64,000 bases of DNA from the sequence record NC_106514.1; one strand, 5' to 3'. The position numbers were made by a program, and so were the translations under genes. The notes under the pieces were generated by a model. That model saw only the letters and a program-made list of their open reading frames with translations, was not told where the DNA came from and searched no databases. Shown here one piece after another: positions 2,590 to 52,818 of the stretch; the first letter of the stretch is position 1, and each line of letters opens with the position of its first letter. This stretch comes from Escherichia phage vB_EcoS_ESCO40.

Positions 2590-2618
2590 TTGCATGATAC
2601 TCAAAATCTTGATATAAT
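2590..2618 (+). promoter_or_regulatory. T5-type early promoter (family member P1)
   Basis: TTGCAT-17 bp-TATAAT followed by conserved initial transcribed sequence ATTTATATTGAATTGAGAGA. Confidence 0.7.
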
Positions 2619-3118
2619 ATTTATATTGAATTGAGAGACATTAGTAAAAATTGGTTTTACTAATTTTTCTTGTTTACAATCCGCGATACGGAACAGTTAG
2701 GCTGCCCCATTAAGGGTTGTTTTAACTGTTACGTGTTAGTTTTTAAACAAATAGTTAATAGAATACTTAGCGATCTGCGTCCCATAGGAACCCTGGTAAG
2801 GCCTCGAAGCAACCTAGTATGAGGTGGTTGTGAAGTGAGATGGGAGGAGTGAAAAACTACCGAGACGTGATTCTGTAAGTTATATTGCATCTAGTATGAG
2901 CTAGTATATGAAGCATTAGGTGAGCAAATCTGGCTTAGCGGCCATCCTCAAGGATTTGTGCGGTATAATGAGGCAGCAGCGCAGCGTGAAAGTGGAAGTT
3001 GCCACCCCACTTCAGTATTTGCGATTAATTTGTTGAGAAATTGACAGTAACAGTTGTTCTATTCTTTCTGAATAGTCCTAAAGAAAACTTATTTCATTTC
3101 CAACACAGGAGTATTGTT

Positions 3119-5908
3119 GTGTTTTCAATCCTACAAGGTCATGCAGGATTTCATCGCGATTTAGCCACAGGCAATTGGCGAGAAGTTAAAGCAGAAGATT
3201 ATCTTTTTGCTAAAAGATTTTCCTCAAAGCATCCTGAAGGTAAACCAGCTTCAATGCCCTTCAAGTTTGATGTAATTGACGAAGTTGATCCTCAAACCCT
3301 AGTAGAAATGCTCCCTCTTATGAGACGTTTAACGTCTGACCCTCATATCGTTGCGGTACGAGGTCGATGTCTTGCACCTAAAAATAATGTGCGGCGTAAG
3401 AAGGGCAACTTTAATGTATCTAATCCAAGTCATATAATCGCAATGGATGTGGATGGTATTGTAGATACAGGAGGTTGTAACAAGTTTGATCTTGTTGGCG
3501 TGGCTCGACATATTATTAGGATGTTAAATAGTATTAGTGAGGATATGTTTCCTCTTGATGCAGGGTTTATCGCTCATGCATCGTCTTCGGCTGGACTAAA
3601 ACCAGGTATCCGAATGCACTTAATACTAGAATCTAATGTTAAAGTTACACAGGGTCAGATCAAGTTCTTATTTACATCTATCAACGAAAGTAGTAGACAA
3701 AAGTATGGCTTTGATATTGCCGACTTAGCTTATTACTCTTCCGTACAGCTCCACTATTTCGCAGATCCTTTATTTATTGATGGTATAGTCGATCCGTTTA
3801 AAGCGGAGGGTGCTTCACGTCTGGTATTTGTTAAAGGCTCAAAAGTAAATTTACCTAATAATCTAGTTGACTATGAAACAACTAGAGGAGAGTTTAAAGA
3901 GGAATTCTACTCTTTACTCGATCAAATTAAAGGTAAAAAAGCTGCCTCTGATAAAGTAGAGGAAACTATCAGTGAGCTAGAAGAGGCTGATGATGGGGTA
4001 TACTTACGTATTATTCCAAAGCTATATCACCGAGCGTTAGAGGATGGGGTAGATTTTGGTTGGCTAGAAAAAGAAATCCGCCCAGCTTTATCAGAATATA
4101 TTGCAACTAAAGATAATAGCCGTAATATTCAGGATTATTTCAATAACGGACGGAAACAGGCATTAAAAGCCTTTGTGAATAACTCTAAGCGTGAGATCCC
4201 TGAAGTATTAAAAGGTATCCCCCTTAAAAAGCTAGAAACTAATTCACTAGAGACTGACAACTTCTTGAAATTAAATACTGTACCACCAGAAGGCTATATG
4301 ACTTTTGTAAAAGCAAGTCTAGGCACAGGTAAAACCACGGCGGTTGTGCGTTGGTTAGATTCAGGGGTTATTAAAGGTAATTTCTTAGCAATTACCAATA
4401 CTAGAGCACTGGTATCTTCAAATGCTAAGAAATTTAGTGCAGGACAATATGATAAGTCTGTAGATATGCTTAATTTTAAGCGTGGTGCTATTGACCGTAT
4501 GTCCACAACTATTCACTCTTTGCATAAATTCAAGAGTTTTATTGGTCAAATTGACGCAATCTTTATCGATGAATGTGATGCAGTAATGAATGACCTATTA
4601 TTCGCTCCGGTTGTTAAGCAACGTCGCGAGTGTATTCAGGTTCTTCGTGATATTCTTGCAACTGCAAAAATAATTATATTATCTGATGGGGATATTAGTG
4701 CAGAAACAATTGAAGCATATGGTTCTTTGATTGAGTTCGATAAACCAGTTGCATTTTACAATCACCACCGTAAAATGCTGTCAAAAGCTCATGCTTATGA
4801 GTTCCCTGATGAATCCAGTATTTGGGTTGCACTTCAGACTTCTCTAGAGATGGGTGAGAAATCTATTCTAGTATCTGATTGTGGCCCGGATGAGCTGAAT
4901 GAGAAAGGTATGGCACTGCGTCGTAATACGGGTGCGTTAGTTAAGGAAATCCATTCAAACTCTACCTCAGATGTGGATATTCGACGTATTCTGGATTACA
5001 CAACTAATGAACTAATTGATCAACAAATTGATTGCTTATTATGTAGTCCATCCGTAACGAGTGGTGTTGACTTTAACTATTTTGATAACGTATTTGTTAT
5101 TACTAGAACTAGTAATCAAGCGCCAAACATGCGTTTTCAAGCAATCAGGCGCGACCGTGGTGCTCAGAATATCTATTATTTTATTGATAAATCCACTAGT
5201 GGGTTCTCTGCTGGTTCTGAACAATATAATATTGATGAAGGTTGGCTGGAGTTAGCACAGCAGTTATATGCGCGTCGCAGGGAGCTAGAATCTAGGAACT
5301 ATACTAGTACTTTACGTTATTACTTGCTTGATCAAGGTGCAACTATTGATATTTTCAGCGAAAGCTGGGGAACTATTGAAGGTGCTGGTAAAGAGTACAC
5401 AGAAGAGCGAATCAAAGCTATTCTGCATTCAACTCCAGATTATTGTGCTCCACGTCATGCGGATGCGTATGAAGCTAAACTACTTCTTGTTCGCTATTAT
5501 CATCTTGAGTCTATTAAAGATGTAACAGTTGAGCATGTTGAACAATATATCAAAGATAAGCCGAATGATCGAGCTGCATTCTTCCATAAGATGCACGAGA
5601 TGTTCTGGGAAGATATTAAGAAGTGTTCAAATGTGACCATTAAACCATTCATAGAAGCTCTGAAAGGTAAGAAGAAGGACTTCTTCCTTAAAACAGGTCA
5701 GAGTGCTAACCCAAAATATGCTAGAATGTATCTTGGTATGATGGGTATTGGTAAAGATATGAACACGGAGAATATCGTAGACTGGTACAGAACCTATTGT
5801 AAAATCGAGTGTATGCCAATTCCTTATAAGTTCATGACTGACGAGGAAAAACATATGCACGATGAAGCAATGTCAGAGCTAGGTGCTAGAAATGACAGTG
5901 AAGAATAA
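3119..5908 (+). CDS. SF2 helicase-domain protein, putative replication initiator / origin-binding-like
   Basis: Walker A GTGKTT and DExD-like IFIDECD in central region; ORF open from 3041 (TTG); GTG at 3119 follows AGGAG by 7 nt; start uncertain. Confidence 0.6.
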   Translation: MFSILQGHAGFHRDLATGNWREVKAEDYLFAKRFSSKHPEGKPASMPFKFDVIDEVDPQTLVEMLPLMRRLTSDPHIVAVRGRCLAPKNNVRRKKGNFNVSNPSHIIAMDVDGIVDTGGCNKFDLVGVARHIIRMLNSISEDMFPLDAGFIAHASSSAGLKPGIRMHLILESNVKVTQGQIKFLFTSINESSRQKYGFDIADLAYYSSVQLHYFADPLFIDGIVDPFKAEGASRLVFVKGSKVNLPNNLVDYETTRGEFKEEFYSLLDQIKGKKAASDKVEETISELEEADDGVYLRIIPKLYHRALEDGVDFGWLEKEIRPALSEYIATKDNSRNIQDYFNNGRKQALKAFVNNSKREIPEVLKGIPLKKLETNSLETDNFLKLNTVPPEGYMTFVKASLGTGKTTAVVRWLDSGVIKGNFLAITNTRALVSSNAKKFSAGQYDKSVDMLNFKRGAIDRMSTTIHSLHKFKSFIGQIDAIFIDECDAVMNDLLFAPVVKQRRECIQVLRDILATAKIIILSDGDISAETIEAYGSLIEFDKPVAFYNHHRKMLSKAHAYEFPDESSIWVALQTSLEMGEKSILVSDCGPDELNEKGMALRRNTGALVKEIHSNSTSDVDIRRILDYTTNELIDQQIDCLLCSPSVTSGVDFNYFDNVFVITRTSNQAPNMRFQAIRRDRGAQNIYYFIDKSTSGFSAGSEQYNIDEGWLELAQQLYARRRELESRNYTSTLRYYLLDQGATIDIFSESWGTIEGAGKEYTEERIKAILHSTPDYCAPRHADAYEAKLLLVRYYHLESIKDVTVEHVEQYIKDKPNDRAAFFHKMHEMFWEDIKKCSNVTIKPFIEALKGKKKDFFLKTGQSANPKYARMYLGMMGIGKDMNTENIVDWYRTYCKIECMPIPYKFMTDEEKHMHDEAMSELGARNDSEE

Positions 5909-6125
5909 AAAATGGGAAACAAGGAAGTTTCCAGTAAAAGAACGTAAGGTTCCTGTTTATGATACTTCGGAAAAGCTATGTAGGGTGGTACCACACAGAT
6001 TAGCTGGTATCCCTAACATATCCGAGTGGTTACTTAAACAACGGAGGACTAGCGTATCCCTCCGCATAGGGTTTGAGTTAGATAAAGTATATGCTGAACT
6101 TTCTTCTTTGCTCAAAGAATCATAA
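5883..6125 (+). CDS. hypothetical protein (80 aa)
   Basis: ORF overlapping the end of the upstream gene; no motif recognised. Confidence 0.35.
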   Translation: MLEMTVKNKKWETRKFPVKERKVPVYDTSEKLCRVVPHRLAGIPNISEWLLKQRRTSVSLRIGFELDKVYAELSSLLKES

Positions 6126-6133
6126 AAAATTAT

Positions 6134-6162
6134 TTGCTTTCAGGAAAAATTTTCTGTATAAT
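6134..6162 (+). promoter_or_regulatory. T5-type early promoter (P2)
   Basis: TTGCTT-17 bp-TATAAT then AGATTCATAAATTTGAGAGAGGAG. Confidence 0.75.
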
Positions 6163-6193
6163 AGATTCATAAATTTGAGAGAGGAGTTTAAAT

Positions 6194-6898
6194 ATGGCTG
6201 GTTCTCGCAGAAAGAAACATATCCATGAAATCCCGGATGAAGTCTTTAAAAAAGTTATAGAGCATCTGGAGAACGGTGGTACTAAGAAAGCAGCATGTGA
6301 AATGCTCGGCGTATCATCCAATCCAACTATGGAAAGGATGATTGAAGAATGGCAAGACCGCCAGATTCAAGTTGCCGAAATGAAGAAAAAGAAACGTGGT
6401 ACACTCATTGAAGGTATTGAGTTGGCCAACGTTATTGAGCAGTATCTATCTGGTGACTCCTTTGAGGAGATTGCCGATCGTAATTATCGTTCTGTAGCAA
6501 TGGTTAAATCTGTTCTGGAACGATATGGTGCTCTACTTCGTTTGAACGATATTGTAGATCCATTGAATCCACCAATTATTCCTGATGATGCTGTAGCAGA
6601 AGAATTTGAGGTAGGCGAGCTTGTTTGGGTTCCTGGATACCAGTGTATCGGTGAAATCAAAAAGGCAATGGATAATCCTGTTGGTTGCTACCGTGTATGG
6701 CTTCTATCAGAAGGCAAACAACAGAACGTTCATTATATGAATTATGAATTAGCTTCTGTAAAGCATTTGGAAAAGTTAGGGGTTGACGTAAAATCTCTGG
6801 GGTACAAGTGGACTCGTGAAGAAGTTATTACGTTGATTAACGAAGCTGTTAAGGCTGCCCTGAAACTTGATAAAGAAAAAGGAAAACGCCGTGAGTAG
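6194..6898 (+). CDS. putative DNA-binding protein
   Basis: GAGAGGAG RBS 7 nt before ATG; N-terminal helix-turn-helix-like segment GGTKKAACEMLGVS. Confidence 0.6.
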   Translation: MAGSRRKKHIHEIPDEVFKKVIEHLENGGTKKAACEMLGVSSNPTMERMIEEWQDRQIQVAEMKKKKRGTLIEGIELANVIEQYLSGDSFEEIADRNYRSVAMVKSVLERYGALLRLNDIVDPLNPPIIPDDAVAEEFEVGELVWVPGYQCIGEIKKAMDNPVGCYRVWLLSEGKQQNVHYMNYELASVKHLEKLGVDVKSLGYKWTREEVITLINEAVKAALKLDKEKGKRRE

Positions 6899-7142
6899 AC
6901 TAACTGATTTACTTAAAGATGGGGAAGTAAAAACACTATATCGCAGAAGCTGGGGTAACGATAATAACGGCTTAGTGTTACTAACTTTAGATGCTGACTC
7001 GGATGTAGCTACCCAGCATACCTGGGTAGCCGGTAACTATCCATATAGCGAGGTCGTTTCATTAACAGTATGCGAAGCTATTGCGGACGATTGGGAGGTT
7101 GCCAGCATTGATGATATGCTCGCTGTTGGCCTGGTGGAGTAA
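6891..7142 (+). CDS. hypothetical protein
   Basis: GTG start preceded by AAGGAAAA, overlapping upstream stop (GTGAGTAG); the ORF track extends to 6867. Confidence 0.4.
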   Translation: MSRLTDLLKDGEVKTLYRRSWGNDNNGLVLLTLDADSDVATQHTWVAGNYPYSEVVSLTVCEAIADDWEVASIDDMLAVGLVE

Positions 7143-7159
7143 CTACTTAAAAATTTCAG

Positions 7160-7188
7160 TTGCTTAATCCTATAATTCTTGATATAAT
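7160..7188 (+). promoter_or_regulatory. T5-type early promoter (P3)
   Basis: TTGCTT-17 bp-TATAAT. Confidence 0.7.
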
Positions 7189-7245
7189 ATTCTCATAGTT
7201 TGAAAGAACTATTCTGTTTAATTCTTAATTAAGGAAATATAAAAT

Positions 7246-7656
7246 ATGACTACTCCAACTCAGTGGACTGATGAACTGTTCGAAAAAATGTCTTCCGAAT
7301 ACGTTGCTCGTATGGAGCAATTCCCAGAGGATGAACGTCCGAGTGTTAGTATGGAAATTGTTAGTGAAATTGCCCAAGAAAATGGTGTAACTCCGAACGG
7401 TTTTCGTATGAAGCTGACTAAAGCAGGTGTGTATATCAAGAAAGCTGCTGGTTCTGCTTCTAAATCTAGCGCATCTACTGGAGAAAAAGCTTCTGGTGGT
7501 TCTCGTACCTCCAAAGCCCAAGCTCATGCCGACCTGCGTTCAGCATTCTCTGATGCTGGCTTAGCACCAGATTTTCTGGATGATGCAATTATCGACAAAC
7601 TGACCGGTAAAGCGGCCGCTCATCTGGCAGAAGCAATCCGAGCTATCACTAAGTAA
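7246..7656 (+). CDS. hypothetical abundant early protein
   Basis: AAGGA RBS; codon usage dominated by host-preferred codons (CTG, CGT, GGT); Ala/Ser-rich. Confidence 0.55.
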   Translation: MTTPTQWTDELFEKMSSEYVARMEQFPEDERPSVSMEIVSEIAQENGVTPNGFRMKLTKAGVYIKKAAGSASKSSASTGEKASGGSRTSKAQAHADLRSAFSDAGLAPDFLDDAIIDKLTGKAAAHLAEAIRAITK

Positions 7657-7693
7657 TATTTAGATAAATCCACCAACAAAAGGAACTACAGTT

Positions 7694-7990: not shown

Positions 7991-8000
7991 GAAAACAATT

Positions 8001-8040: not shown

Positions 8041-8349
8041 ATGAGCGAACAGGTAAATCAAAACTATGAAGGACACGTTGATGACCAGTCCATCATACTT
8101 TGGGAGAAGGAGGGGGAACAAGTAAGATTAACAGTATCTGAATTTCGTGGGAATCTATACATGGGTATTCGTTACTGGCTTCTTGATATTAATGATGAAT
8201 GGTTTCCAACGAAATCTGGCTTCTCTTTTCCTTACACCCTAGAAACAACATCACAGCTTTTCTATGCGTTTACACAGATTCTTAGTGAATCTGAGGTTTT
8301 ACATGAAGTACAGAAACGAGCTGAAGAACTCAAAGCCAAGAATGCCTAG
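8041..8349 (+). CDS. PC4/YdbC-like ssDNA-binding protein
   Basis: LTVSEFRGNLYMGIRYWL...WFPTKSGFSFP resembles the PC4-like fold signature; bracketed by two terminators. Confidence 0.45.
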   Translation: MSEQVNQNYEGHVDDQSIILWEKEGEQVRLTVSEFRGNLYMGIRYWLLDINDEWFPTKSGFSFPYTLETTSQLFYAFTQILSESEVLHEVQKRAEELKAKNA

Positions 8350-8366
8350 TTCTTGGCTTTTTCTTT
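8335..8366 (+). terminator. intrinsic terminator
   Basis: GCCAAGAA/TTCTTGGC stem followed by TTTTTCTTT; overlaps the stop codon. Confidence 0.7.
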
Positions 8367-8376
8367 ATAAATGTAT

Positions 8377-8405
8377 TTGCTTTCAACTCAGTTTTGTTAT
8401 ATAAT
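8377..8405 (+). promoter_or_regulatory. T5-type early promoter (P4)
   Basis: TTGCTT-17 bp-TATAAT then ATTTATATAAATTAATGAGAGG. Confidence 0.75.
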
Positions 8406-8434
8406 ATTTATATAAATTAATGAGAGGATCAATC

Positions 8435-8635
8435 ATGGCAATGACAGTAACACTTCCCAAGATTCAAGCAAAACTTAATCTACTTTCCACAGCACGTATT
8501 AATTATCAAGATAGCATAGGCACAGTAAATCAAAAAGCGTACAAAGATGCGTTTCTGAAAGAATCTGCTGATTTGATGGATATGGTTACACAATATAATA
8601 AAGAACTCAAGATGGAAATCGCCGATGATGAATAA
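8435..8635 (+). CDS. hypothetical protein
   Basis: ATG 8 nt after GAGAGGA; the track ORF from 8420 would start inside the conserved promoter leader. Confidence 0.45.
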   Translation: MAMTVTLPKIQAKLNLLSTARINYQDSIGTVNQKAYKDAFLKESADLMDMVTQYNKELKMEIADDE

Positions 8636-9599
8636 TGTAAAAGGCTTTATTAGGCGTTGTCAAGAAGCATATTATCAAGGCATGTCTTTAATCTCTGATG
8701 AGGAGTATGATTGCCTGGTAAAACGCTTCCCGTTAGAAGAAGAGATCGGGCCTAAAGGTGATATTCCACATCTGTATCGTATGTATTCTTTACAGAAAGT
8801 TTATTATAATCGTGGAGATAAACCCCCATTTAACCCCTTAGGTCAGGTAGAAACTGATAAGTTAGATGGTTGTGCAATTTCTCTGTTATATATTAACGGC
8901 GAATTTGTCCAAGCATTAACCCGTGGTAATGGTATTCTAGGGAATGATGTCACAAGCAACGTAAGATTGCTGAACATTCCTAAAAAGATTTCCCAAAAAG
9001 TACCTACTCAAATCACTGGTGAAGTTCTAATTACAAAAGAAGTAGAAAATAAACGTAACTTTGCCTCTGGTGCTATTAACCTCAAAGATAGTGATGATTT
9101 CGTACAACGCATTGGAGAAGGCGGTTTAATCTTTGTTGCTTACGGTATCCAATGTTCTGCTGAATCTGTAGGTATTACAGAAGCATACTTAAAAGATATG
9201 CTTTGGCTAGAGAATGAGAACTTCTTAACAGTTGTTAATGTGCGTTCCTTCTTTAAATGGATTCCGACGGACGGTAAAGTTGTTCGTATTAATGACAACA
9301 ACAAATTCTTCCGTGAAGGCTGGACTAATAAATTCCCTCGTGGAGCATTCGCTATTAAAGAGGATGAAGAAGGCGAAATTACAACTCTTACTAAAGTTGA
9401 ATGGCAGGTAGGGGCTTCTGGTAAAGTAACTCCAGTTGGTTATTTCGAACCGGTAATTATTGATGATGCTACAATTGTTAAGGCGACTCTTAATAACGTT
9501 GATTATATTAACTCTCTCGATCTAGAGATCGGTTGCCAGATTCGAGTGATTCGTGCTGGTGGTGTAATCCCGTGCATAGTAGAGCGAGTATACGATTAA
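8625..9599 (+). CDS. NAD-dependent DNA ligase, N-terminal fragment (Ia-like, adenylation and OB regions)
   Basis: KLDG adenylation motif (KxDG); SDEEYD Ia-like segment; ends where a Zn-finger would follow in an intact LigA. Confidence 0.8.
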   Translation: MMNNVKGFIRRCQEAYYQGMSLISDEEYDCLVKRFPLEEEIGPKGDIPHLYRMYSLQKVYYNRGDKPPFNPLGQVETDKLDGCAISLLYINGEFVQALTRGNGILGNDVTSNVRLLNIPKKISQKVPTQITGEVLITKEVENKRNFASGAINLKDSDDFVQRIGEGGLIFVAYGIQCSAESVGITEAYLKDMLWLENENFLTVVNVRSFFKWIPTDGKVVRINDNNKFFREGWTNKFPRGAFAIKEDEEGEITTLTKVEWQVGASGKVTPVGYFEPVIIDDATIVKATLNNVDYINSLDLEIGCQIRVIRAGGVIPCIVERVYD

Positions 9600-9649
9600 T
9601 ACATAACCCTTTGCTACCCATCTACCATATCGGAATTATAAAGTGGTTA

Positions 9650-9678
9650 TTGACATTTTCGCCGCTTAGGTATATACT
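9650..9678 (+). promoter_or_regulatory. sigma70 consensus-like promoter in the ligase gap
   Basis: TTGACA-17 bp-TATACT. Confidence 0.6.
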
Positions 9679-9742
9679 ATTATCATTCAGTTGAGGGATA
9701 GAAAGTTATGGCGAGGGTAAGCAAAGTTAGTTAAAATTGTAG

Positions 9743-9771
9743 TTGCTAAATGCTTAAATACTTGCTATAAT
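9743..9771 (+). promoter_or_regulatory. T5-type early promoter (P5)
   Basis: TTGCTA-17 bp-TATAAT then ATTTATATAAATTGATAAGGAAG. Confidence 0.75.
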
Positions 9772-9801
9772 ATTTATATAAATTGATAAGGAAGAAATTT
9801 G

Positions 9802-10581
9802 ATGAAAATCGAAATTCCAACACAATGTCCCTCTTGTGGTTCTAAGCTAGATCTTGTCAACGGACAATTATTCTGTCGTAATAAGTCCAACTGTCCAGCG
9901 CAATCAAGTAAGTTAATTGAGAACTTCTGTACAAAAATGAAGTTAAAGGGCTTTGGCCCGAAAACTATTGAGAAGCTGGAGCTGACGAAGATTTCAGAAC
10001 TATTTTACCTAACCGAAGAAGATTTGGTTAGAGCCGTGGGTAGCAAGGTTGCCGCTAAGTTAATTAGCGAATTAAATACTAAAGTTCGCGGAGACATTGA
10101 CTTTGGTTCAGTTCTCGGTTCTTTAGGAATCCCTCTAATTGGAGAGGTTGCAGCAAAGAAATTGTCCCAAAATTGCACCAGTTTTCAAGATGTGAGAGCT
10201 GATGGCAAAGCTGGAGAAAATTATAAAGCCTGGCTAAATTCCCCACAAGGCAAGGATGTTATCGAATTACCGTGGAAATTCACAACTGGTATTAAAGGTG
10301 CTAAAGCTGGGGTCATCATTACTGATGGTCTAGTAGCCCAGCCAAATGGAATCACGGTGTGTATTACCGGGTCTTTGCAAGATTTTGCAAATAGAACGGA
10401 TGCAACAAATTATTTAGAAGGTCTAGGGTATACTGTTAAAAAATCAGTTACCAAAGACGTTAAATACCTAATCTGTGAGGATGAATCGAAGCGTTCTTCC
10501 TCATCTTATAAGAAAGCCGAAACGAATGGGATAGAAATCCTGTCGATTAAAGAACTATTGGAGAAAAATAATAATGTCTAA
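9802..10581 (+). CDS. NAD-dependent DNA ligase, C-terminal fragment (Zn finger, HhH, BRCT-like)
   Basis: CPSCGS...CRNKSNC zinc finger at N-terminus; ITGSL BRCT-like segment; TAAGGAAG RBS 8 nt upstream. Confidence 0.75.
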   Translation: MKIEIPTQCPSCGSKLDLVNGQLFCRNKSNCPAQSSKLIENFCTKMKLKGFGPKTIEKLELTKISELFYLTEEDLVRAVGSKVAAKLISELNTKVRGDIDFGSVLGSLGIPLIGEVAAKKLSQNCTSFQDVRADGKAGENYKAWLNSPQGKDVIELPWKFTTGIKGAKAGVIITDGLVAQPNGITVCITGSLQDFANRTDATNYLEGLGYTVKKSVTKDVKYLICEDESKRSSSSYKKAETNGIEILSIKELLEKNNNV

Positions 10582-12896: not shown

Positions 12897-13783
12897 GTAG
12901 AATAACAGAACTACTTGATCTGAAAGGCATTGAATATAAAGACACAGGTGGGGACATCCTCATCTGTTGTCTCAATCCAGATCATGACGATAAACACCCA
13001 AGTTTGCGTATTGACCCTGAAACAGGTATTATGCACTGCTTGAGTTGTGGCTTCGGTAAAGGTATACCGAGCATTTACCATTATTTTAATGAGACTCAGT
13101 ACCGACAGTCCCCAAGGCTATCGCAAGTACGTAAAAAGATTTCAGAGATTAGGAATGGATCAACGAATCTTGCAATTCCTGAATCTGCTTACCTTTTCGA
13201 AGGTGATTTCCGGGGTATAAGTTCTAAGACCTTGAAGAAATATTTTGCTTTCCAACACCAAGAGAGCTGGGAAGGCAGAATTGTATTCCCAATCACAGAT
13301 GCTGTTGGACGCAATATCCTATTTTTGGGTCGTTCTATAAACAGTTCTGCCCCTCCTAAATACTTAGTAAAACCAAAACAAGTTTCACCGCCAATTTTTC
13401 CTGTACGATATAATACTCCAGTTCTTATTCTAGTTGAAGGCATCTTTGATATGCTGAACCTAGAGGATAATGGTATAGACTATGCTTCTTGCTGCTTTGG
13501 TACACATCAGTTTACTTCGGATAACATTGCAGATAAGTTCAGTCCTTATATTATTGCTGGGGTAAAAGTTGTTGTTATCTTACTAGATAATGATGCTTCC
13601 GGTAATAAAGCTGCACAAGCACTGGCCAAGCTAATTCGTACAAAAACGCGTTTAACACCTGTAGTTGCTAACTTTCTTCTGCCCGAAGGTAAAGACCCCG
13701 GTGATTTAAATAAAGAAGAGATTGATATGTTAGCAAAACGTATTGAAATTTTAGTTGCTGAATCACTTAAAGATTTGGTATAA
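12893..13783 (+). CDS. DnaG-like DNA primase
   Basis: CHC2-type zinc finger (CCLNPDHDDKHPSL...CLSCGFG); TOPRIM-like LVEGIFD and LLDNDASGNKAA. Confidence 0.8.
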   Translation: MSRITELLDLKGIEYKDTGGDILICCLNPDHDDKHPSLRIDPETGIMHCLSCGFGKGIPSIYHYFNETQYRQSPRLSQVRKKISEIRNGSTNLAIPESAYLFEGDFRGISSKTLKKYFAFQHQESWEGRIVFPITDAVGRNILFLGRSINSSAPPKYLVKPKQVSPPIFPVRYNTPVLILVEGIFDMLNLEDNGIDYASCCFGTHQFTSDNIADKFSPYIIAGVKVVVILLDNDASGNKAAQALAKLIRTKTRLTPVVANFLLPEGKDPGDLNKEEIDMLAKRIEILVAESLKDLV

Positions 13784-13809
13784 TAGTCCTAAATAACTGA
13801 GGAGCTACT

Positions 13810-14139
13810 ATGGAATATGTATATATTTATGAAGATGTTCCAGTATACGATAGTATAACACACGAAGAAGTTAAACTAGAGCTATTTACAGTACTAGAGT
13901 CCCTTAATAAACGAAAGGATTTCCATTTATTTGGTGATCCTAAATTACCTGCATCTTATATTTTCTTTAAAGTAAAAGATACAGGTCAAGAGGTGTATCT
14001 AACTTATGATTGGGCTGTTGTAGAAAATACTGAGCAATCTATGAAAGTGTTAGGTGCTTTTCTGCGTATAGATGAAGAATTTCGGTCACTAGAAAAGCAG
14101 CGCAATGAAATGCGTAAATTACTACATACCTATAAATAG
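13810..14139 (+). CDS. hypothetical protein (109 aa)
   Basis: GAGGAG-type RBS; no motif recognised. Confidence 0.45.
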   Translation: MEYVYIYEDVPVYDSITHEEVKLELFTVLESLNKRKDFHLFGDPKLPASYIFFKVKDTGQEVYLTYDWAVVENTEQSMKVLGAFLRIDEEFRSLEKQRNEMRKLLHTYK

Positions 14140-14142
14140 TAT

Positions 14143-14172
14143 TTGCTATTATCCCAATATTTTTGATACAAT
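14143..14172 (+). promoter_or_regulatory. T5-type early promoter (P6)
   Basis: TTGCTA-18 bp-TACAAT; downstream leader contains the inverted repeat GGTAAGT...ACTTACC. Confidence 0.6.
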
Positions 14173-14233
14173 ATATTGGTAAGTTAGAGAAGAAACACTG
14201 AAGTTATACTTACTTACCAAGAGGAGATTAAAT

Positions 14234-17291: not shown

Positions 17292-18640
17292 AGGTTGTTA
17301 TATCTAATAAAGCCTATTTCAAGCCCGATGATGAACTTTGGGATTATTGTAGTAAGCAAACCACTTATCACATAGAGACAATGACTAGTAAATACCCTAT
17401 TATGTATAAGAATAGTGGTGTTGTTGCCAAAGAGATTAAGTGGATTCCTATTACGCGTCTGGACTTACTAGATGCTAAAGGAGTAAAATACGAATTAGTC
17501 GATAAACGCACATTAGCTCCGGTAGATATACCAAAACCTAAGTTCAAACTGCGTGAAGAAGATCAGCTTCCAATATACGAAGAATGCGATGATACCTGTA
17601 TTATTAATGGTAAGCCTGGATTTGGTAAAACTATCCTAGCCCTTGCACTTGCGTATAAATTTGGCCAGAAAACTTTGGTAATCTGTACGAATACATCCAT
17701 TCGTGAAATGTGGGCGGCAGAAGTTCGTAAATGGTTTGGGTTTGAACCAGGCATCATAGGTTCTGGGAAATACAATATTGATCCACCAATTGTAGTTAGT
17801 AATATTCAAACAGTGAATAAACATGCGAATAATCTTTCTAAAGTATTCGGTACTGTTATAGTTGATGAAGTTCACCATTGTGTAGCTACAACTTTCACTA
17901 ACTTCCTAGAAATATCATGTGCTCGCTATAAAATTGGACTATCCGGTACACTAAAACGAAAAGATGGTTTGCAAGTTATGTTCAAAGATTTCTTTGGATA
18001 TAAAATCTTTAGTCCTCCAGTTAATAATACTGTTGCTCCTACAATCCACAGGTACTCCGTACCAGTTGAATTGTCTGGAAACCAAAACGTACCGTGGGCA
18101 TTACGTGCTAACGATGTGTATAATCATCCTGAATATCGAGAGACCATTATAAACCTAGCACATTTATATGTGAATATGGGACATAAAGTACTCATTGTAA
18201 GTGATAGAACAGAGTTAATCCAAACAGTACTAGAAGCACTATCTCAGAGAGGAGTCACAACCTATGAGATTATTGGCGCAACCCACTTAGATGACCGATT
18301 AAAAATTCAGGAAGATATAGCAAAAGGTGGGTCTTGTGTACTTGCAGCAGCTCAAAGTATCTTCTCTGAAGGTATTTCCCTTAACGAGCTGTCTTGTTTA
18401 ATAATGGGAAGCCTCATTAATAATGAATCTCTCATCGAACAGCTTGCAGGCCGTGTTCAACGTATTGTCGATGGTAAACTCGACCCTATTGTTGTAGATC
18501 TAATTATGAAAGGTGGCACTGGGTTAAGGCAGGCTTCTGGACGTATGGCAGTATATCGTAACAACGGGTGGAAAACTATTACTATGACTCCGGAGAAAGC
18601 AGTTCAATTAGCTAAAATTGCATTTGGCAACAGCTCATAA
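17288..18640 (+). CDS. SF2 DNA helicase (DEVH-box)
   Basis: Walker A GKPGFGKT, Walker B VIVDEVHH, C-terminal helicase motifs (QLAGRVQR). Confidence 0.75.
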   Translation: MKVVISNKAYFKPDDELWDYCSKQTTYHIETMTSKYPIMYKNSGVVAKEIKWIPITRLDLLDAKGVKYELVDKRTLAPVDIPKPKFKLREEDQLPIYEECDDTCIINGKPGFGKTILALALAYKFGQKTLVICTNTSIREMWAAEVRKWFGFEPGIIGSGKYNIDPPIVVSNIQTVNKHANNLSKVFGTVIVDEVHHCVATTFTNFLEISCARYKIGLSGTLKRKDGLQVMFKDFFGYKIFSPPVNNTVAPTIHRYSVPVELSGNQNVPWALRANDVYNHPEYRETIINLAHLYVNMGHKVLIVSDRTELIQTVLEALSQRGVTTYEIIGATHLDDRLKIQEDIAKGGSCVLAAAQSIFSEGISLNELSCLIMGSLINNESLIEQLAGRVQRIVDGKLDPIVVDLIMKGGTGLRQASGRMAVYRNNGWKTITMTPEKAVQLAKIAFGNSS

Positions 18641-18652
18641 ATGATGTATAAT
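18624..18652 (+). promoter_or_regulatory. T5-type early promoter (P7)
   Basis: TTGGCA-17 bp-TATAAT then ATATACATAAATTTGAGAGAGAAAG; overlaps the helicase gene end. Confidence 0.65.
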
Positions 18653-18723
18653 ATATACATAAATTTGAGAGAGAAAGTTTCGGATTGATAAGAAAGTCCG
18701 AAGCAGAAAAATAAAAATTTTAG

Positions 18724-18753
18724 TTGCTAAATTCTCTCGAAATCTAGTATAAT
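18724..18753 (+). promoter_or_regulatory. T5-type early promoter (P8)
   Basis: TTGCTA-18 bp-TATAAT then ATATACATAAATTCGAGGAGAAAAC. Confidence 0.7.
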
Positions 18754-18860
18754 ATATACATAAATTCGAGGAGAAAACAAAAATTAAATTCTTCGATTAT
18801 GAAAAGCTATACTTACTAGCTAGAGGAAATTCTGACCTAATTATTAAGCTATTCAAAAGA

Positions 18861-19145
18861 ATGCTTACAGAGCCTGATGCTCACCAATTATTGGTCGGTT
18901 CCTCATTTATTTTGAATGAATCAACAATAGTTGATAATCCAAATAAATTGTCTAATAGACAACTGGCAGAATATCTAGGAATTTTAAGTCTACGAAATTA
19001 TGCCGAATACAAGTTTACAAACGATCCTAGTTTGGACATACAATATGTTCCAGTATGGATACCACGTTTAGTAATCGACACTAACCCACTAATCGCAATT
19101 AACAAATCGAAATTAATCTTTAAAGAGGAAATAAAATATGGCTAA
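18861..19145 (+). CDS. hypothetical protein (94 aa)
   Basis: ORF with weak RBS; ends at the start of the next gene. Confidence 0.35.
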   Translation: MLTEPDAHQLLVGSSFILNESTIVDNPNKLSNRQLAEYLGILSLRNYAEYKFTNDPSLDIQYVPVWIPRLVIDTNPLIAINKSKLIFKEEIKYG

Positions 19146-19911
19146 GTCTTGGGGCGAAACTACTGGCGGTTCTAACGATAAAATCGAATTCCTGAAGTTC
19201 AACAACGGTATCACTCGTGTTCGTATCGTTTCTGGTGTTCTTCCACGTTATGTCTATTGGCTGACTAATAAAGAGGGTAGCGTAGCTCCTTTCGAATGTC
19301 TCCGTTTTAACCGCGACAAAGAGAGCTTTGTTCGTGGTAAAGCTGATCCGGTTCATGAGATGGGTTTCTTTGAGAAAGAGCTGGATAAAGATGGTAATCG
19401 CGTTCCGCTGAAACCGAAGAAAAACTATATCGCTTTTGTTATCGACCGTTCTGATAACAAACTGAAAGTAATGGAAGTCAAGGCTACTATTCTGAAAGGC
19501 ATCCAGTCTATCATGAAGCAGTTGAATCTGGCGACTCCGTTTGATATTGATATTTCTATTGAGAAGAAGGGTAAAGGTTTCGATACCGAGTATGATGTAC
19601 AGCAGATTGCTGCTATGCAGTTCCAAATTAAGCTGCAAGATCCTAACAGCGCAGAATCTAAGCAATATGCTGCGGATGTAGATCTGATCGGTGAAGCTAT
19701 GTGTGATGAAGATGGCGACATCATCAAGTTCGAAAAAGTTCCTTCTCTGGAACAAACATATCCGGTTCCTACCTATGAAGAGCAGAAAGAAGCAATTCAA
19801 GCCTTCATGGAAGGTCGTGAGAATAAAGATGATGATGCCAAATCTGGTAACAGCAATGCTGGTTCCCAGAAAGGTATTGACCAAGAAGCTGCAAGCGATC
19901 TGGACGACTAA
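19138..19911 (+). CDS. putative ssDNA-binding protein (abundant early protein)
   Basis: AAGAGGAAA RBS; host-preferred codons; acidic C-terminal tail EAASDLDD typical of SSB-type proteins; not confirmed by motif. Confidence 0.4.
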   Translation: MAKSWGETTGGSNDKIEFLKFNNGITRVRIVSGVLPRYVYWLTNKEGSVAPFECLRFNRDKESFVRGKADPVHEMGFFEKELDKDGNRVPLKPKKNYIAFVIDRSDNKLKVMEVKATILKGIQSIMKQLNLATPFDIDISIEKKGKGFDTEYDVQQIAAMQFQIKLQDPNSAESKQYAADVDLIGEAMCDEDGDIIKFEKVPSLEQTYPVPTYEEQKEAIQAFMEGRENKDDDAKSGNSNAGSQKGIDQEAASDLDD

Positions 19912-19947: not shown

Positions 19948-20478
19948 ATGAGAAATAAGCTATATTCCTTATTTTTGGAAGACCCTAAAAAATTCATTTT
20001 ATTAGTAAATAAATTCAGAGAAAGATTTTCTTATGATCCTGAGTCCGGCCTACTCTCTAGGAAAGTAGGAACGGGTGGTCAGTTAGCAGGATCTATAGTA
20101 GGCACGGATAATGGAAAAGGGTATTTAAGAACCTCATTTAATAATGAGCAGTATCTTGTACATTTAATTATTTATGCCATGCAGACTAATGAAATGGCAG
20201 AAGTAGTAGACCACAAAGACTTAGATAAGAAGAATAATAGATGGAATAATCTAAGACCAACTAATAAATCAGGTAATGAAAGAAACACAAGCGTAAGATC
20301 TAATAGTACCACAGGTGTTAAAAACGTATATTGGATACCTGGGAGACATAAGTATAGGGTTCAGTTTAAAATCCACGGAGAAACAAAATACTTTGGATAT
20401 TATGATACTATTCAAGAAGCAGAAGTAGTAGCTGATAGGGAACGTAGGCGACTACACGGAGAATTTGCCAGATCATGA
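19948..20478 (+). CDS. HNH homing endonuclease with AP2-like DNA-binding domain
   Basis: VDHKDLDKKNNRWNNLR HNH motif; C-terminal GVKNVYW...YRVQFKIHGETKYFGYY AP2-like segment. Confidence 0.8.
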   Translation: MRNKLYSLFLEDPKKFILLVNKFRERFSYDPESGLLSRKVGTGGQLAGSIVGTDNGKGYLRTSFNNEQYLVHLIIYAMQTNEMAEVVDHKDLDKKNNRWNNLRPTNKSGNERNTSVRSNSTTGVKNVYWIPGRHKYRVQFKIHGETKYFGYYDTIQEAEVVADRERRRLHGEFARS

Positions 20479-36037: not shown

Positions 36038-36064
36038 AGTTAATTTCTCCTCTTAGATACAATT

Positions 36065-36093
36065 ATTATAATAGTATTAGAAAATTTTATCAA
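36065..36093 (-). promoter_or_regulatory. sigma70-like promoter for the distal-tail/baseplate operon
   Basis: On the minus strand TTGATA-17 bp-TATAAT about 25 nt upstream of the RBS. Confidence 0.55.
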
Positions 36094-36111
36094 GAAATTT
36101 TTATTTTTCCA

Positions 36112-48646: not shown

Positions 48647-49083
48647 TATAAGAACCTTGCGAATCCTGATTTTATTTCAGTCTTGACTTGTGTCTTTTCT
48701 TGAGGATTCTGTAATTTGTCTTTCTGCTTTTGAACCCACACTTTTTGCTTATTAGCAGAAAATAAAGGAGGTTCTTTTGTGTAAACCTTATGTAATAGTT
48801 GGTGATGGTGTACACAAAGGGTAACAGTGTCTTCTACCAGCTCATGCCTATATCGATCATAGAATGCCGTCCTATTTGAAAGGACTGTTTCTTCGTCAGT
48901 GAAATCCAATTGGAGTTCTTTAGCAAATTTTTTAACTAGTAGAGACACCGTATGGTAATGATGAAGCTCTAATTCTTCAGCACAACCGCAGATAGCACAT
49001 TGAGAGTCTTTTTTATATTGACTTTTTATTCCGTCTCTCATAAGGGATATAGCATCGCGTTTATATTTTATATTGCTTGCCAT
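48646..49083 (-). CDS. HNH-type endonuclease-like zinc-finger protein
   Basis: CAICGC...HHYH...CVHHHQLLH Cys/His cluster; start taken at ATG preceded by GAGGAG (track ORF extends to 49170). Confidence 0.5.
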   Translation of the reverse strand: MASNIKYKRDAISLMRDGIKSQYKKDSQCAICGCAEELELHHYHTVSLLVKKFAKELQLDFTDEETVLSNRTAFYDRYRHELVEDTVTLCVHHHQLLHKVYTKEPPLFSANKQKVWVQKQKDKLQNPQEKTQVKTEIKSGFARFL

Positions 49084-49197
49084 AGTGTTCTCCTCAACTG
49101 TATGAATATAGTATACATAATCGTATCGAATTTGTAAAGGGGATTTTAAAATACAGGAATGGGATACCAACTGAGTAGTATCCCATCCTATACTTAT

Positions 49198-50514: not shown

Positions 50515-50996
50515 TACTTTTTACCTCCAGTAGCTAGGGAAGTAATTAAGTCCATGTAGTTTTGGTCCCCAGCTCCAGCAATAATGTTATTCTGGATATT
50601 GGTCTGATTAGCAGGAGCACGGACAGCAGCTTTAGCTTTCTCTAACTCTACCATCATCTTCATTTCTTCCATCTTCATTTTGTGTGCCTTCCAGAGAATA
50701 TCCATAATATCTTGGTCAGAACCCATGCCAGTTTCTTCTAGCTCTTCTAGCTTACGCTTAATAACCTCATCTAGAACACCAAATAAACGATCCCTATTAC
50801 GGAATCCACTCTCCATAAAAATATCGTTTAAGTAGTTCTTAACTTCACTACGATTCATAATATCTCGAAAAGCAATTTCGGACATTCCAAGGCTACGTGC
50901 GGCAGAAGGCACATCGCTACCACACTGTAAATAAGCTTCAATCACATCCATCCCTTCAGGGGACATAAGATCTGGTACTAATACATCATTTGCCAT
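50514..50996 (-). CDS. putative terminase small subunit / DNA-binding protein
   Basis: 160 aa immediately upstream of terminase large subunit; HTH-like [16 protein letters not shown]. Confidence 0.4.
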
Positions 50997-51006
50997 ATTT
51001 CCTCCT

Positions 51007-52764
51007 TTAGGTAAGGCGCTGAACTGTTACTCTTAATCTAGGTAGGAAAACTGCGCTACCCAAACTCACGTGCATAACTACTCCTAACTCTACATTTCCA
51101 TTTCCTAAATTTTTAACAGTGTATATAAAACTGTTCCTACTTAGAGCATTGTTAGGTGTATATCTAAAAGCAGATGTAGTATGAAAAGGTACTAGATAAC
51201 CCACAGGTAGCGTTAAAATCTGGTGGAATATTGCATCTCCATTACTATAACTATGCGCTTTTCTTCCTTGTACTTGAAACACACCATTATTCCATGTATT
51301 AGCTGGAACACCCGCACAATTAAGATTACCTGATATAACTTCAGTAGTAAGAATTACTGTAGCATTTCCGCCTGGTATACCTAGCCCAATAGTTGATAAA
51401 CCAACGTATCTGTCCCCAGTTCCTGGATAGTGGGGTGTAATATCATCTCCCATATAAGAACTACCTACATTTCCACTAAAAAGTCGAAGTGGAACTGCTG
51501 ATGGTCCCCAAACAACCCCATGTTCATTACCAATAGTATTATTATTTGAGTTTACGTACCATTGTTTACCGGCCCCAAATTTATAAATGCTAATCTGTGA
51601 TTTAGCTCCCCCATAATCTACAGGAGACCACAACCCTCCGTTACTAGATCCTACAAGTTCACACCTTGCAGTGGTGTCCCCAAAAACCCCAGTATACGCT
51701 GCGTTATTCCCTATATACTCCATATCAGGACGATAACCTAGGTTACCAAAGGCATTCTGATTTATAAATTTATATCCGGTATTAGGGAGACTTACCCCTT
51801 TAATTATGAAATTAGAAGGAGATATAAGAATATCAGAACCAGTAAAGGGATTGCCGGAAATACTCATTCCACCATTAGAGTACCTTAAATTAAGAACATA
51901 CCAAATAACCTTAGTAGGAGTTATATTATACCAGTCCTGTAGTATTGTAGAGTCACCCGACTGGTTGGCCAGATTAGTAGTAGATCCCCTACAAACAAAT
52001 CTGTTCCCGCCGTCGTGGTACATAGTATTTACACTACCTGGGAGCCCTTGCCTAACCCCACCATACCCACGTATATTAGAATTACAAACATAAAACCAAT
52101 CATGCCCTCTATGCGCTGCCCCTAGGGGTGACATCCATCCAGGATCCCAATAGTACTGGTTATTCCCATCTACAGGTACTGTGCTACTATTAGTAGGAAA
52201 ACCTAATTGTGCAAAGGCTTCTGCAACAGTAACACCTACAGGAGCTCCCGCACCGGGCCTAACTATACCATGGTATGTACTATGTAACGTAGTACCCCCT
52301 GTGCCACTCCTAGAGATAGATTCTTCGTGCCCTATCGAGGGATTATAATTATAAGTTCCAGATGCTAGACTATTACCGAAGGCAAATCCACTGGTTTGAG
52401 AAACACTAGCAAAAGATCTAAAGGGATCTGCCTGGGTGGCAACTATAGTTTGACCAACTTTACTCTGAGTACCATTAAGAAAAGCTCTGTGAGTACCATT
52501 AATTTCAATAGCAGTTAGTATAACTCTACCAGGATCGTTAGATTTAATATTTACTATATCAGAAGGCATTTGACATACAAAAAACCCATTCCCGGCATTG
52601 CCTAATCCTGCCTCATAAGTACCATCAACTAGAACAAATGGCATATCACTATGAAAAATACTATTATTGTTTGGACTATAGTGACGATTAATGTCACCAC
52701 CAGATTCAGTATTTAAAGATAGTACGGTCTTACCATCGCTATATTTTCCAGCGAAAAAACCCAT
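51007..52764 (-). CDS. receptor-binding tail protein (pb5-like)
   Basis: 585 aa, Gly/Asn/Ser-rich; N-terminus MGFFAGK and C-terminus VQRLT resemble T5 pb5 as recalled; divergent from the lipoprotein gene. Confidence 0.7.
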
Positions 52765-52789
52765 ATAATCTCCTATTATAAAAATGTAT

Positions 52790-52818
52790 TTGCTTTCATC
52801 CCTCTATTTTGCTATAAT
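52790..52818 (+). promoter_or_regulatory. T5-type early promoter (P9)
   Basis: TTGCTT-17 bp-TATAAT then AGACTCATAAATTAGAAATGGAGAG. Confidence 0.75.

Follow-up and report, generated by a model that had tools for sequence, protein, structure and literature searches.

The recurrent promoters of this phage are best read as the host sigma-70 early promoters of a T5-like phage (Tequintavirus), with a transcribed leader (initial transcribed sequence, ITS) selected for promoter escape; we put the probability of this reading at about 85%. The family and the conservation of its leader are real but ordinary, being already known, with the full set present in GenBank. The window, that is, the whole stretch of 64,000 nucleotides that was analyzed, represents the early, late and terminal-repeat part of the genome and is collinear with T5 from 56.5 kb to the right end. 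All of the promoter sites proposed in an earlier note on this DNA exist, each with the elements described for it, and they are given below together with three further sites. Scores in bits refer to a family position weight matrix (PWM) trained on 22 promoters of the T5 left arm only, a region absent from the window; +1 positions are predicted from the published P_N25 numbering.

2578 to 2638, plus strand: long-leader early promoter of obp (T5P32; an unnamed promoter in AY543070), 39.0 bits; -35 TTGCAT at 2590, -10 TATAAT at 2613, +1 at 2625, variant ITS ATTGAATTGAGAGA; a terminator-like hairpin (2521-2543) lies immediately upstream.
6122 to 6182, plus strand: P_N25 ortholog (D2 gene; 'promoter P-N 25' in the T5 record), 54.2 bits; -35 TTGCTT at 6134, -10 at 6157, +1 at 6169, ATG at 6194 (+26); the ITS ATAAATTTGAGAGAGGAGTT does not differ from that of T5.
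7148 to 7208, plus strand: P_N26 ortholog (D3 gene; 'promoter P-N 26' in the T5 record), 44.2 bits; -35 at 7160, -10 at 7183, +1 at 7195, ATG at 7246; the variant ITS ATAGTTTGAAAGAA is predicted to fold into a 5'-terminal hairpin.
8365 to 8425, plus strand: T5P35 (the ligA promoter in T5), 45.1 bits; -35 at 8377, -10 at 8400, +1 at 8412; -10 and leader form T5 'repeat b'; a terminator-like hairpin is found at 8332-8360.
9638 to 9698, plus strand: P-K28b ortholog ('promoter P-K 28b' in the T5 record), below 12 bits; TTGACA-17-TATACT from 9650, ITS ATTCAGTTGAGGGA; in tandem with, and upstream of, P-K28a.
9731 to 9791, plus strand: P-K28a ortholog (ligB), T5 'repeat b copy 5', 54.2 bits; -35 TTGCTA at 9743, TGn-extended -10 at 9766, +1 at 9778, start codon at about +22/+25.
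13744 to 13804, plus strand: the copy at 13755, overlooked earlier, 33.7 bits; TTGCTG-17-TATAAT, -10 at 13779.
14132 to 14192, plus strand: pol-proximal promoter, 29.6 bits; -35 TTGCTA at 14143, -10 TACAAT at 14167.
18612 to 18672, plus strand: P31A ortholog ('promoter P31A' in the T5 record; T5 'repeat c copy 7'), 37.9 bits; -35 TTGGCA at 18624, within the terminal part of the D10 helicase gene, -10 at 18647, +1 at 18659; a strong hairpin is predicted in the leader at 18677-18704.
18713 to 18773, plus strand: P31B/T5P38 ortholog ('promoter P31B' in the T5 record), 50.9 bits; -35 TTGCTA at 18724, 18-bp spacer, -10 at 18748, +1 at 18760, with a leader of ~100 nt to the ORF at 18861.
36045 to 36105, minus strand: ortholog of T5P39, an annotated T5 late promoter, 19.1 bits; TTGATA-17-TATAAT AATTGT ATCTAAGAGGAGAAATTAACTATG, without early-type discriminator and ITS.
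49090 to 49150, minus strand: related promoter in the late-gene block, 21.5 bits; TTTACA-17-TATACT, discriminator ATATTC, then ATACAGTTGAGGAG and on to ATG; shared with T5 up to +2.
52778 to 52838, plus strand: early promoter of the llp-like gene (T5P41), 44.1 bits; -35 at 52790, -10 at 52813, +1 at 52825, ATG at 52850 (+26).
59714 to 59774, plus strand: weak or degenerate copy, located in the terminal repeat (pre-early region), 21.4 bits; TATAAT at 59749, then ATAAGC and ATAAATTAATGAGA; no ORF follows, and a 15-bp tandem array lies next to it.

The assignment to the T5 early class, which the earlier note had also made, is supported by orthology: three T5 records and that of Bf23 carry the corresponding annotated promoters. 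AY587007 carries T5P32-38 and T5P41, with 'repeat b' and 'repeat c' features that span the -10 element and leader; AY543070 carries P-N25 (6134 in this window), P-N26 (7160), P-K28b (9650), P-K28a (9743), P31A (18624) and P31B (18724); and the T5 GenBank records also mark promoters of obp, ligA, pol and llp, without naming them. T5 counterparts exist for 10 of the 11 sites listed earlier: 59726 has none, yet is kept in about 200 relatives, and at 14143 the match to the T5 pol promoter is confined to discriminator and leader. There the A-tract, -35 and -10 were brought by a 375-bp insertion and joined to the original pol discriminator ATATTG and leader GTAAGTTAGAGAAG (the Bf23 record remarks of this locus 'absent in T5 phage'), while the upstream half of the original T5 pol promoter, at 13755, is now joined to a foreign leader and drives an inserted 109-aa ORF (13810-14139). 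The motif does find the early sites, as had been claimed for it; the set it was to define is, however, already annotated in GenBank, and a tenth strong copy (13755) has to be added to the nine strong sites.

Positions, genes and architecture are the same as for the T5 early promoters P_N25, P_N26, P_K28a/b, P31A/B and the other 'T5P' promoters (Gentz & Bujard 1985), although the phage is distinct from T5, with a DNA identity of about 87-98% in the early region. The N25 copy is unchanged from the -10 element through the start codon, but lacks one T upstream and has a single substitution in the spacer; the insertion, with its replacement -35/-10, splits the pol promoter; and the ligA promoter drives an additional 66-aa ORF (8435-8635), not in T5, before ligA. 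In the published start of P_N25, TATAATAGATTCAT spans -12 to +2 (Klimuk et al. 2020), which our +1 assignment fits. Use of host E-sigma70 and early-class expression have been published for T5, from primer extension of Ppol and P15A and from N25 in vitro.

The core of the family consists of TTGCWW (TTGGCA at 18624), a spacer of 17 bp (18 bp at 14143 and 18724 among the listed copies), TATAAT (TACAAT at 14143), a 6-nt A/T-rich discriminator and a ATAAATTnGAGAG-like sequence. TTGCWW-N17/18-TAYAAT occurs eight times on the plus strand and not at all on the minus strand of the whole window, against 0.56 ± 0.77 expected for both strands together (maximum 3 in 100 dinucleotide shuffles). The motif search suggested in the earlier note, run over the window with the T5-left-arm PWM, places the family far above chance, the nine sites scoring 29.6-54.2 bits compared with a maximum of 11.0 over 20 shuffled windows. 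Only the family-specific motif discriminates the sites from background; a scan of 1-20 kb with the generic sigma-70 consensus was uninformative (57 sites, 58.6 expected). The copies are not 'near-identical', as they had been called, since mean pairwise identity is 58% over -47 to +14 (range 43-70%) and 41% for the spacers. Nor is 9650 a weaker copy: by its elements and PWM score it is a different promoter type, outside the TTGCWW/TATAAT/ATAAATT subfamily. The other proposed weaker copy, 59726, retains the -10 and leader at 21 bits, with a poor -35.

Upstream of the -35 element, a conserved A-tract (AAAAtT, about -45 to -39) that was missing from the earlier description has the consensus tAAAAtT in the nine copies, and an A-rich block around -43 is found in all six genomes compared. 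Five of the nine spacers end in a TGn-extended -10 motif, and the early-class discriminators are ATTTAT, AGATTC, ATTCTC, ATATTG, ATATAC and AGACTC. With +1 taken from the published N25 numbering, (A)TAAATT begins 7 nt after the -10 element, exactly in six of the nine copies and as a variant in three. Information content per position is 0.65 in the discriminator, 0.67 at +1 to +8 and 0.56 at +9 to +16, and falls to 0.17 at +17 to +30 (0.14 far upstream). When sites were picked by core elements alone, the 13-mer leader (≤2 mismatches) stood exactly at +1 in 5 of 16, for a chance rate of ~1e-4 per position. As a free 13-mer it was not enriched across the window (15 matches, 12.2 expected); the leader thus gains significance only through its fixed spacing from the -10 element, and we discard the idea of a self-standing binding site or RNA element. 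Coding overlap is likewise out as the cause of leader conservation, in agreement with the earlier note, because upstream genes touch only the -35 or spacer of some copies (13755 lies in the 3' end of the primase gene, 18624 in that of the helicase gene) and downstream ORFs start at or beyond +20.

Comparison with relatives locates the constraint. The early-promoter discriminator and +1 to +14 block are kept in Demerecviridae of Escherichia, Salmonella, Klebsiella, Proteus and Vibrio, and over 22 pairs of orthologs shared with phages of Klebsiella, Proteus and Vibrio, identity amounts to 34% upstream, 44% in the spacer, 61% in the discriminator, 75% at +1 to +7, 50% at +8 to +14 and 35% at +22 to +40. 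Since the discriminator and +1 to +7 are kept while spacers and flanks are near-random between genera, purifying selection is required, and the proposal that the leader is under selection is borne out. On this comparative evidence, the constraint is strongest on the discriminator and +1 to +7, and the promoter architecture persists in the Klebsiella, Proteus and Vibrio relatives.

Each promoter forms a compact five-part module: a UP-like A-tract (about -45 to -39), a -35 close to consensus (TTGCTW), a spacer of 17-18 bp, the consensus -10 TATAAT and an A/T-rich discriminator of 6 nt that ends in a pyrimidine. We propose that transcription starts at the A of ATAAATTnGAGAGA. The very strong upstream contacts would make escape the slow step, so that the first ~14 transcribed bp would come under selection. 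The selected ITS, A/T-rich at +1 to +7 and purine-rich on the non-template strand at +9 to +14, would favor bubble expansion and forward translocation and cut abortive cycling; in copies with a leader of ~25 nt (roughly 55-60%) the purine run extends into a Shine-Dalgarno sequence at +15 to +20, with ATG at ~+25. The precedent is P_N25, the ITS of which is described as a model of promoter escape since 1986 (Kammerer): replacement of +3 to +20 is reported to yield ~10-fold less productive or full-length RNA through impaired escape, and escape is reportedly aided when the ITS is rich in purines and has GG/GA dinucleotides near +6. At P_N25, the one member for which this has been measured, experiments show escape to be limiting. 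The copy starting at 6169 has this same N25 ITS, changes in which affect the abortive/productive ratio and output. The N25 precedent and the cross-genus constraint together support promoter escape, the first reason offered in the earlier note, and from the evolutionary constraint we infer that the same mechanism may underlie conservation in all copies beyond P_N25. In vivo, N25 reportedly falls short of T7 A1 and lambda PL, even though it is strong in vitro, so 'optimized for escape' is a relative term. N25/N25anti and T7 A1 (Kammerer 1986; Hsu laboratory) resemble the present promoters in their strong upstream contacts, in limiting escape (here proposed) and in a purine-rich, A/T-rich ITS, which supports productive synthesis. 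That work is single-promoter biochemistry, whereas here the ITS type recurs at least 10 times per window, ~30 times per genome and in several genera. The T7 A1 ITS also contains GAGAGGG.

It is improbable that the leader is instead kept for reasons at the RNA level, with an A/U-rich, unstructured 5' end and a purine tract serving as an S1 enhancer/Shine-Dalgarno module or stability determinant. The modal layout (Shine-Dalgarno at +12 to +19, ATG at +25/+26), the purine fraction up to +20 (0.79 in 42 short-leader copies, 0.55-0.56 in long-leader copies) and the predicted unpaired state of the first ~8 nt in most copies fit such a role, which accounts, however, for +15 to +20 only. The +1 to +14 block ATAAATTnGAGAGA is independent of ribosome-binding sites, being equally present in 26-32 copies without a nearby start codon, among them tRNA-gene promoters and leaders of 100-500 nt. 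In the 26 copies from six genomes that lack ATG at +18 to +33, +9 to +14 is 87% purine against a 55% background (P = 2.6e-18) and ATAAATT is matched at a mean of 4.96 of 7 positions against 2.05 at random; a check for hidden mini-ORFs found any ATG at +18 to +33 in only 6 of 32 long-leader copies. A Shine-Dalgarno origin is accordingly discarded for +1 to +14 and accepted for +15 to +20 in short-leader genes. A structured 5' element is also out, as an Rfam search of the 64 kb gave no matches and folding of the nine leaders and two orthologues gave no common structure, the conserved 5' end being mostly unpaired; in the long-leader copies with -10 elements at 2613, 7183 and 14167 the ITS deviates from the consensus, and these copies have predicted 5'-terminal hairpins instead. 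Less unlikely, though still doubtful, is that the discriminator and start region are mainly a class label, read by a phage factor (for example the RNAP-binding gpT5.026, or D5/C2) for early shutoff and late onset. According to Klimuk et al. (2020), it is mainly the discriminator that sets T5 early promoters (consensus ATATT) apart from late ones, gpT5.026 weakens RNAP binding to the -5/+2 non-template segment by a factor of about 8-10, and a gpT5.026 mutant has more early and less late RNA; D5 is annotated for early shutoff in the T5 record, the discriminator is 61% identical between genera, and the late promoter ortholog at 36070 (minus strand) has neither early discriminator nor ITS. Against a label stand the 'early' ATATTC discriminator of the promoter at 49115 (minus strand), inside the late-gene block, the N25 ITS effect with pure host RNAP and no phage proteins, and the lack of free-standing leader copies that would point to a separate protein-binding site. 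A broader version, in which the discriminator and +1 to +14 would be a Demerecviridae-wide handle by which conserved RNAP- or DNA-binding phage proteins (gpT5.026, D5 and C2 homologues) shut off early promoters as a class, and promoter modules would double as preferred recombination joints in the gain and loss of small genes, is somewhat less likely again.

It is very improbable that the similarity is due to copying alone, in which duplication or recombination would carry promoter-leader cassettes along with gene modules and the leader would hitch-hike. T5 annotators did list -10 plus leader as repeat families, and the existence of two discrete subfamilies, 'repeat b' (ATTTAT and ATAAATTGATGAG) and 'repeat c' (TG-TATAAT, ATATTC and ATAAATTTGAGAGAG), suggests common descent or gene conversion as one source of the similarity. 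Inside promoters there are also three indel junctions relative to T5, one in the -10 (13785/14162), one at +15 (8426) and one at +2 (49102, minus strand). The orthologs of these promoters in other genera nevertheless keep the discriminator and +1 to +7 despite diverged spacers and flanks, and the motif blocks are short within an overall identity of only 58%. The inserted ORF 13810-14139 (49 phage records; PHROG 'unknown function') is at the equivalent position in Bf23 and SP15, the two relatives checked, and the comparison of positions in these two gave no evidence of mobility, so it was not retained as a mobile cassette. In T4-type phages, early promoter cassettes (PeSL elements) occur at module junctions, where repeated early promoters border optional small genes, much as the three junctions here lie inside promoters. 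In contrast to PeSL elements, no associated stem-loop repeat is present and no movement between loci was detected; T4 early promoters have a -35 unlike the T5 type, and we know of no conserved ITS in them.

Promoter escape remains the preferred reading of the leader, on promoters whose architecture is the same as that published for the T5-like phage AKFV33 (TTGCTw, 17-18 bp, TATAATA, AAAAATT near -43, TAAATT at +1; 32 promoters per genome; Niu et al. 2012, PMC3326045). The AKFV33 paper treats the +1 region as AT-richness only, with neither the +9 to +14 purine block nor its separation from the Shine-Dalgarno sequence. The discovery value is small, given the GenBank annotation, the published consensus including TAAATT at +1 and the textbook status of the N25 ITS as an escape model. 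N25 is also the basis of widely used expression vectors. What is added is that the +9 to +14 purine block belongs to the promoter itself rather than to a ribosome-binding site, that constraint is focused on the discriminator and +1 to +7, and that the architecture is kept across Demerecviridae infecting different hosts; together, these make the early promoters a natural set of ITS variants for studies of promoter escape or of T5 early shutoff.

The sites that the earlier note took for T5 early promoters are already annotated as promoters in the T5 GenBank records: AY587007 labels its T5P sites "putative early promoter" and holds "repeat b" and "repeat c" copies that are −10-plus-leader stretches, and AY543070 has further promoters, without names, ahead of obp, ligA and pol. 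The correspondences are listed by −35 start.

2590 (+): T5P32 (AY587007)
6134 (+): T5P33 (AY587007) = P-N25 (AY543070)
7160 (+): T5P34 (AY587007) = P-N26 (AY543070)
8377 (+): T5P35 (AY587007)
9650 (+): T5P36 (AY587007) = P-K28b (AY543070)
9743 (+): T5P37 (AY587007) = P-K28a (AY543070)
18624 (+): P31A (AY543070); −10 and leader among the AY587007 "repeat b"/"repeat c" copies
18724 (+): T5P38 (AY587007) = P31B (AY543070)
52790 (+): T5P41 (AY587007)

Between the −10 and the start codon, both included, the N25 copy matches T5 without differences. As the whole T5 genome carries ~30 such promoters, on whichever strand bears early genes, about one third of the family lies in the window. Intrinsic-terminator-like hairpins lie immediately upstream of promoters 2590 and 8377 (2521–2543 and 8332–8360, +), and these terminator–promoter pairs match the T5 annotation. 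Site 59726 alone lacks a counterpart in T5, lying in a pre-early/terminal-repeat segment (59605–59912) that has no T5 match and is 80–95% conserved in ~200 T5-like phages. Directly downstream of this weak element, a 15-bp unit (AATAATAACTATAAA) is repeated 7.9 times in tandem (59776–59896, +), and no ORF follows the element and array on the plus strand.

A 4-kb probe from the region matched 445 phage records (best matches, 97% identity), almost all of them from T5-like Salmonella and Escherichia phages, and T5 (AY587007) is collinear with the window, from ~56.5 kb to the right end. The plus strand carries early replication genes to ~25 kb (obp, D2, D3, ligA/B, D5, helicase, primase, pol, D10–D15) and the minus strand late tail and head genes from ~26 to 52 kb, followed by llp and the terminal-repeat (pre-early) region; the sign of the GC skew flips at the early/late block borders. 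The window end (62811–63996) maps to T5 9185–10341, beyond the terminal repeat's inner end and into unique left-arm sequence, so the source assembly seems to hold a single repeat copy, in a circularly joined representation. An HNH homing-endonuclease ORF (19948–20478, +; 176 aa) lies between D11 and D12 and is missing from T5; the reverse holds for two T5 endonucleases, hegI upstream of P_N25 and hegJ ahead of primase (T5 62.3–62.9 kb and 69.6–70.1 kb), which ESCO40 lacks.

The described elements were present at all eleven coordinates listed earlier. The strict core TTGCWW-N17/18-TAYAAT matched eight times on the plus strand of the window and never on the minus strand, against 0.56 ± 0.77 expected for both strands together from dinucleotide-preserving shuffles. 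To avoid circularity, a position weight matrix was trained only on 22 T5 left-arm promoters, none of them within the window; it scored the nine main sites at 29.6–54.2 bits, compared with a best score of 11.0 in 20 shuffled windows. Of the two sites proposed as weaker copies, 59726 stands as a weak member (21.4 bits), whereas 9650 is a different promoter type (TTGACA/TATACT). The list was also short of a tenth strong copy (−35 at 13755, −10 at 13779; 33.7 bits), and the matrix scan found two related minus-strand promoters in the late block (−10 starts at 49115 and 36070). Also unremarked were an A-tract (AAAAtT) conserved upstream of the −35 and, in five copies, a TGn extended −10. To call the copies "near-identical" was an overstatement, mean pairwise identity being 58% over −47 to +14 and only 41% in the spacers. 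Information content is 0.65 bit per position in the discriminator, 0.67 at +1 to +8 and 0.56 at +9 to +16, and 0.17 past +17. With a generic sigma-70 scan the region could not be told apart from shuffles (57 sites versus 58.6 expected), nor was the leader 13-mer alone enriched (15 matches versus 12.2 expected); the leader owes its significance entirely to lying at a constant 12 nt downstream of the −10's first base.

By the published N25 numbering, in which TATAATAGATTCAT spans −12 to +2, the A of ATAAATT is the transcription start, so the conserved 20 nt comprise a 6-nt discriminator plus +1 to +14. In the modal layout the ATG lies at +25/+26 and the Shine–Dalgarno sequence at +12 to +19, and a ribosome-binding site was considered as the cause of the whole leader. 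Among 74 promoters from six genomes, ascertained by core elements alone, A-T-A-(A/G)-A-T-T-n-G-A-G-A-G-A is kept both in the 42 that have a start codon nearby and in the 32 that do not, and this explanation was rejected. In 26 copies without any ATG at +18 to +33, purines make up 87% of +9 to +14 (background 55%, P = 2.6e-18) and drop to 56% at +15 to +20, where short-leader copies still show 79%; the Shine–Dalgarno sequence thus accounts for +15 to +20 only. An Rfam search of the whole window gave no matches, and folding of nine leaders found no common structure: the 5′ AUAAAUU is left unpaired in most folds, and the downstream hairpins differ gene by gene.

The same promoter architecture precedes orthologous genes in Salmonella phage STG2 (Epseptimavirus), Klebsiella phage IME260 (Sugarlandvirus) and Proteus phage 2 (Novosibvirus), and it recurs in two Vibrio phages with polymerases only 51–58% identical. 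In 22 orthologous promoter pairs formed with IME260, Proteus phage 2 and both Vibrio phages, positions are 34% identical far upstream, 44% in the spacer and 61% in the discriminator, then 75% at +1 to +7, 50% at +8 to +14, 47% at +15 to +21 and 35% at +22 to +40; the −10 value (97%) is uninformative, the −10 having served as pair anchor. Copying was weighed here against selection, and the retention of the discriminator and +1 to +7 while the far upstream and spacer sequences diverged is purifying selection, concentrated on those two blocks.

In published work, P_N25 forms an extremely stable open complex with escape as the rate-limiting step; replacing +3 to +20 ("antiDSR") lowers full-length RNA ~10-fold and raises abortive products; and escape is favored by purine-rich, A/T-rich initial transcribed sequences (ITSs) and by GG or GA near +6, and disfavored by TG. 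In this family a UP-like element accompanies a good −35 and a perfect −10, and such tightly bound early promoters would be kept productive by an ITS selected in all members. The early-specific discriminator (ATATT) could instead underlie class-specific regulation by the RNAP-binding gpT5.026, which is published to weaken RNAP binding to −5/+2; however, the 49115(−) promoter, in the late block, bears the "early" discriminator ATATTC, and the ITS effect requires no phage protein. Selection of the ITS for productivity in every member, an extension from N25 to the other copies, is the most economical reading, and regulation through gpT5.026 may be an additional function.

The variant-ITS copies (−10 at 7183, 14167 and 2613; ATAGTTTG, GTAAGTTA and ATTGAATT) are the only listed family members that depart from ATAAATT, and all three have long leaders with hairpins predicted from +1 (7195–7212, 14179–14217 and 2625–2680, +). 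The pol leader stem GUAAGU/ACUUAC becomes GUGACU.../...AGUCAC, a compensatory change, in Vibrio phage phi 3 (L007, the relative's sequence compared, 19853–19878), and the predicted hairpin may stabilize the 5′ end or act as a translational operator for pol. Between the 2590 promoter and the obp start, ~490 nt (2625–3119, +) lack a convincing ORF, and the first 56 nt of the transcript form a strong predicted 5′ stem-loop (−13.7 kcal/mol, z = −3.3). The distance is similarly long in IME260, and Proteus phage 2 has a family-type promoter ~760 nt upstream of obp and a second, core-pattern promoter immediately before the gene; the long leader may be non-coding RNA or a transcript related to an origin. 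The P31A transcript contains a very stable hairpin (18677–18704, +; −14 kcal/mol, z = −6.3), with no T-run after the stem, between the tandem P31A and P31B. The P-K28b transcript (9673–9735, +) starts with a Shine–Dalgarno-like GAGGGA and an 8-codon mini-ORF (ATG at 9707, MARVSKVS) that terminates within the A-tract of P-K28a, the next promoter downstream.

Three indel junctions between ESCO40 and T5 fall within promoters. A 375-bp segment missing from T5 (13786–14161) sits exactly between the −10 and discriminator of the pol promoter: the upstream half of the T5 promoter now drives an inserted 109-aa ORF (13810–14139, +; PHROG 35630), and the insert brings its own A-tract, −35 and −10, joined to the original pol leader. 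Just 49 phage records contain this ORF, and in the two whose position was checked (Bf23 and SP15) it lies at the corresponding place; the Bf23 record annotates the pol-proximal promoter as "absent in T5 phage". At 8426–8628 (+), the ligA promoter is followed, after +15, by a 66-aa ORF (8435–8635, PHROG 8267) that T5 lacks. At the 49115(−) promoter (junction 49084–49102, −), T5 and ESCO40 agree through +2 and differ from there on, T5 carrying an extra ~740-bp T5-specific ORF. Promoter/leader modules may act as recombination joints.

Homologies among T5 promoters outside the −35 and −10 were reportedly already pointed out by Gentz and Bujard in 1985. For the T5-like phage AKFV33, Niu et al. 2012 (PMC3326045) described 32 promoters with TTGCTw, a 17–18 bp spacer and TATAATA, together with "AAAAATT" near −43 and "TAAATT" at +1, and ITS function is covered by the Kammerer/Bujard and Hsu work; the promoter family with its conserved leader is therefore already known. 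The additions made here are incremental: the +9 to +14 purine block set apart from the Shine–Dalgarno sequence, the constraint profile, and conservation across Demerecviridae genera.
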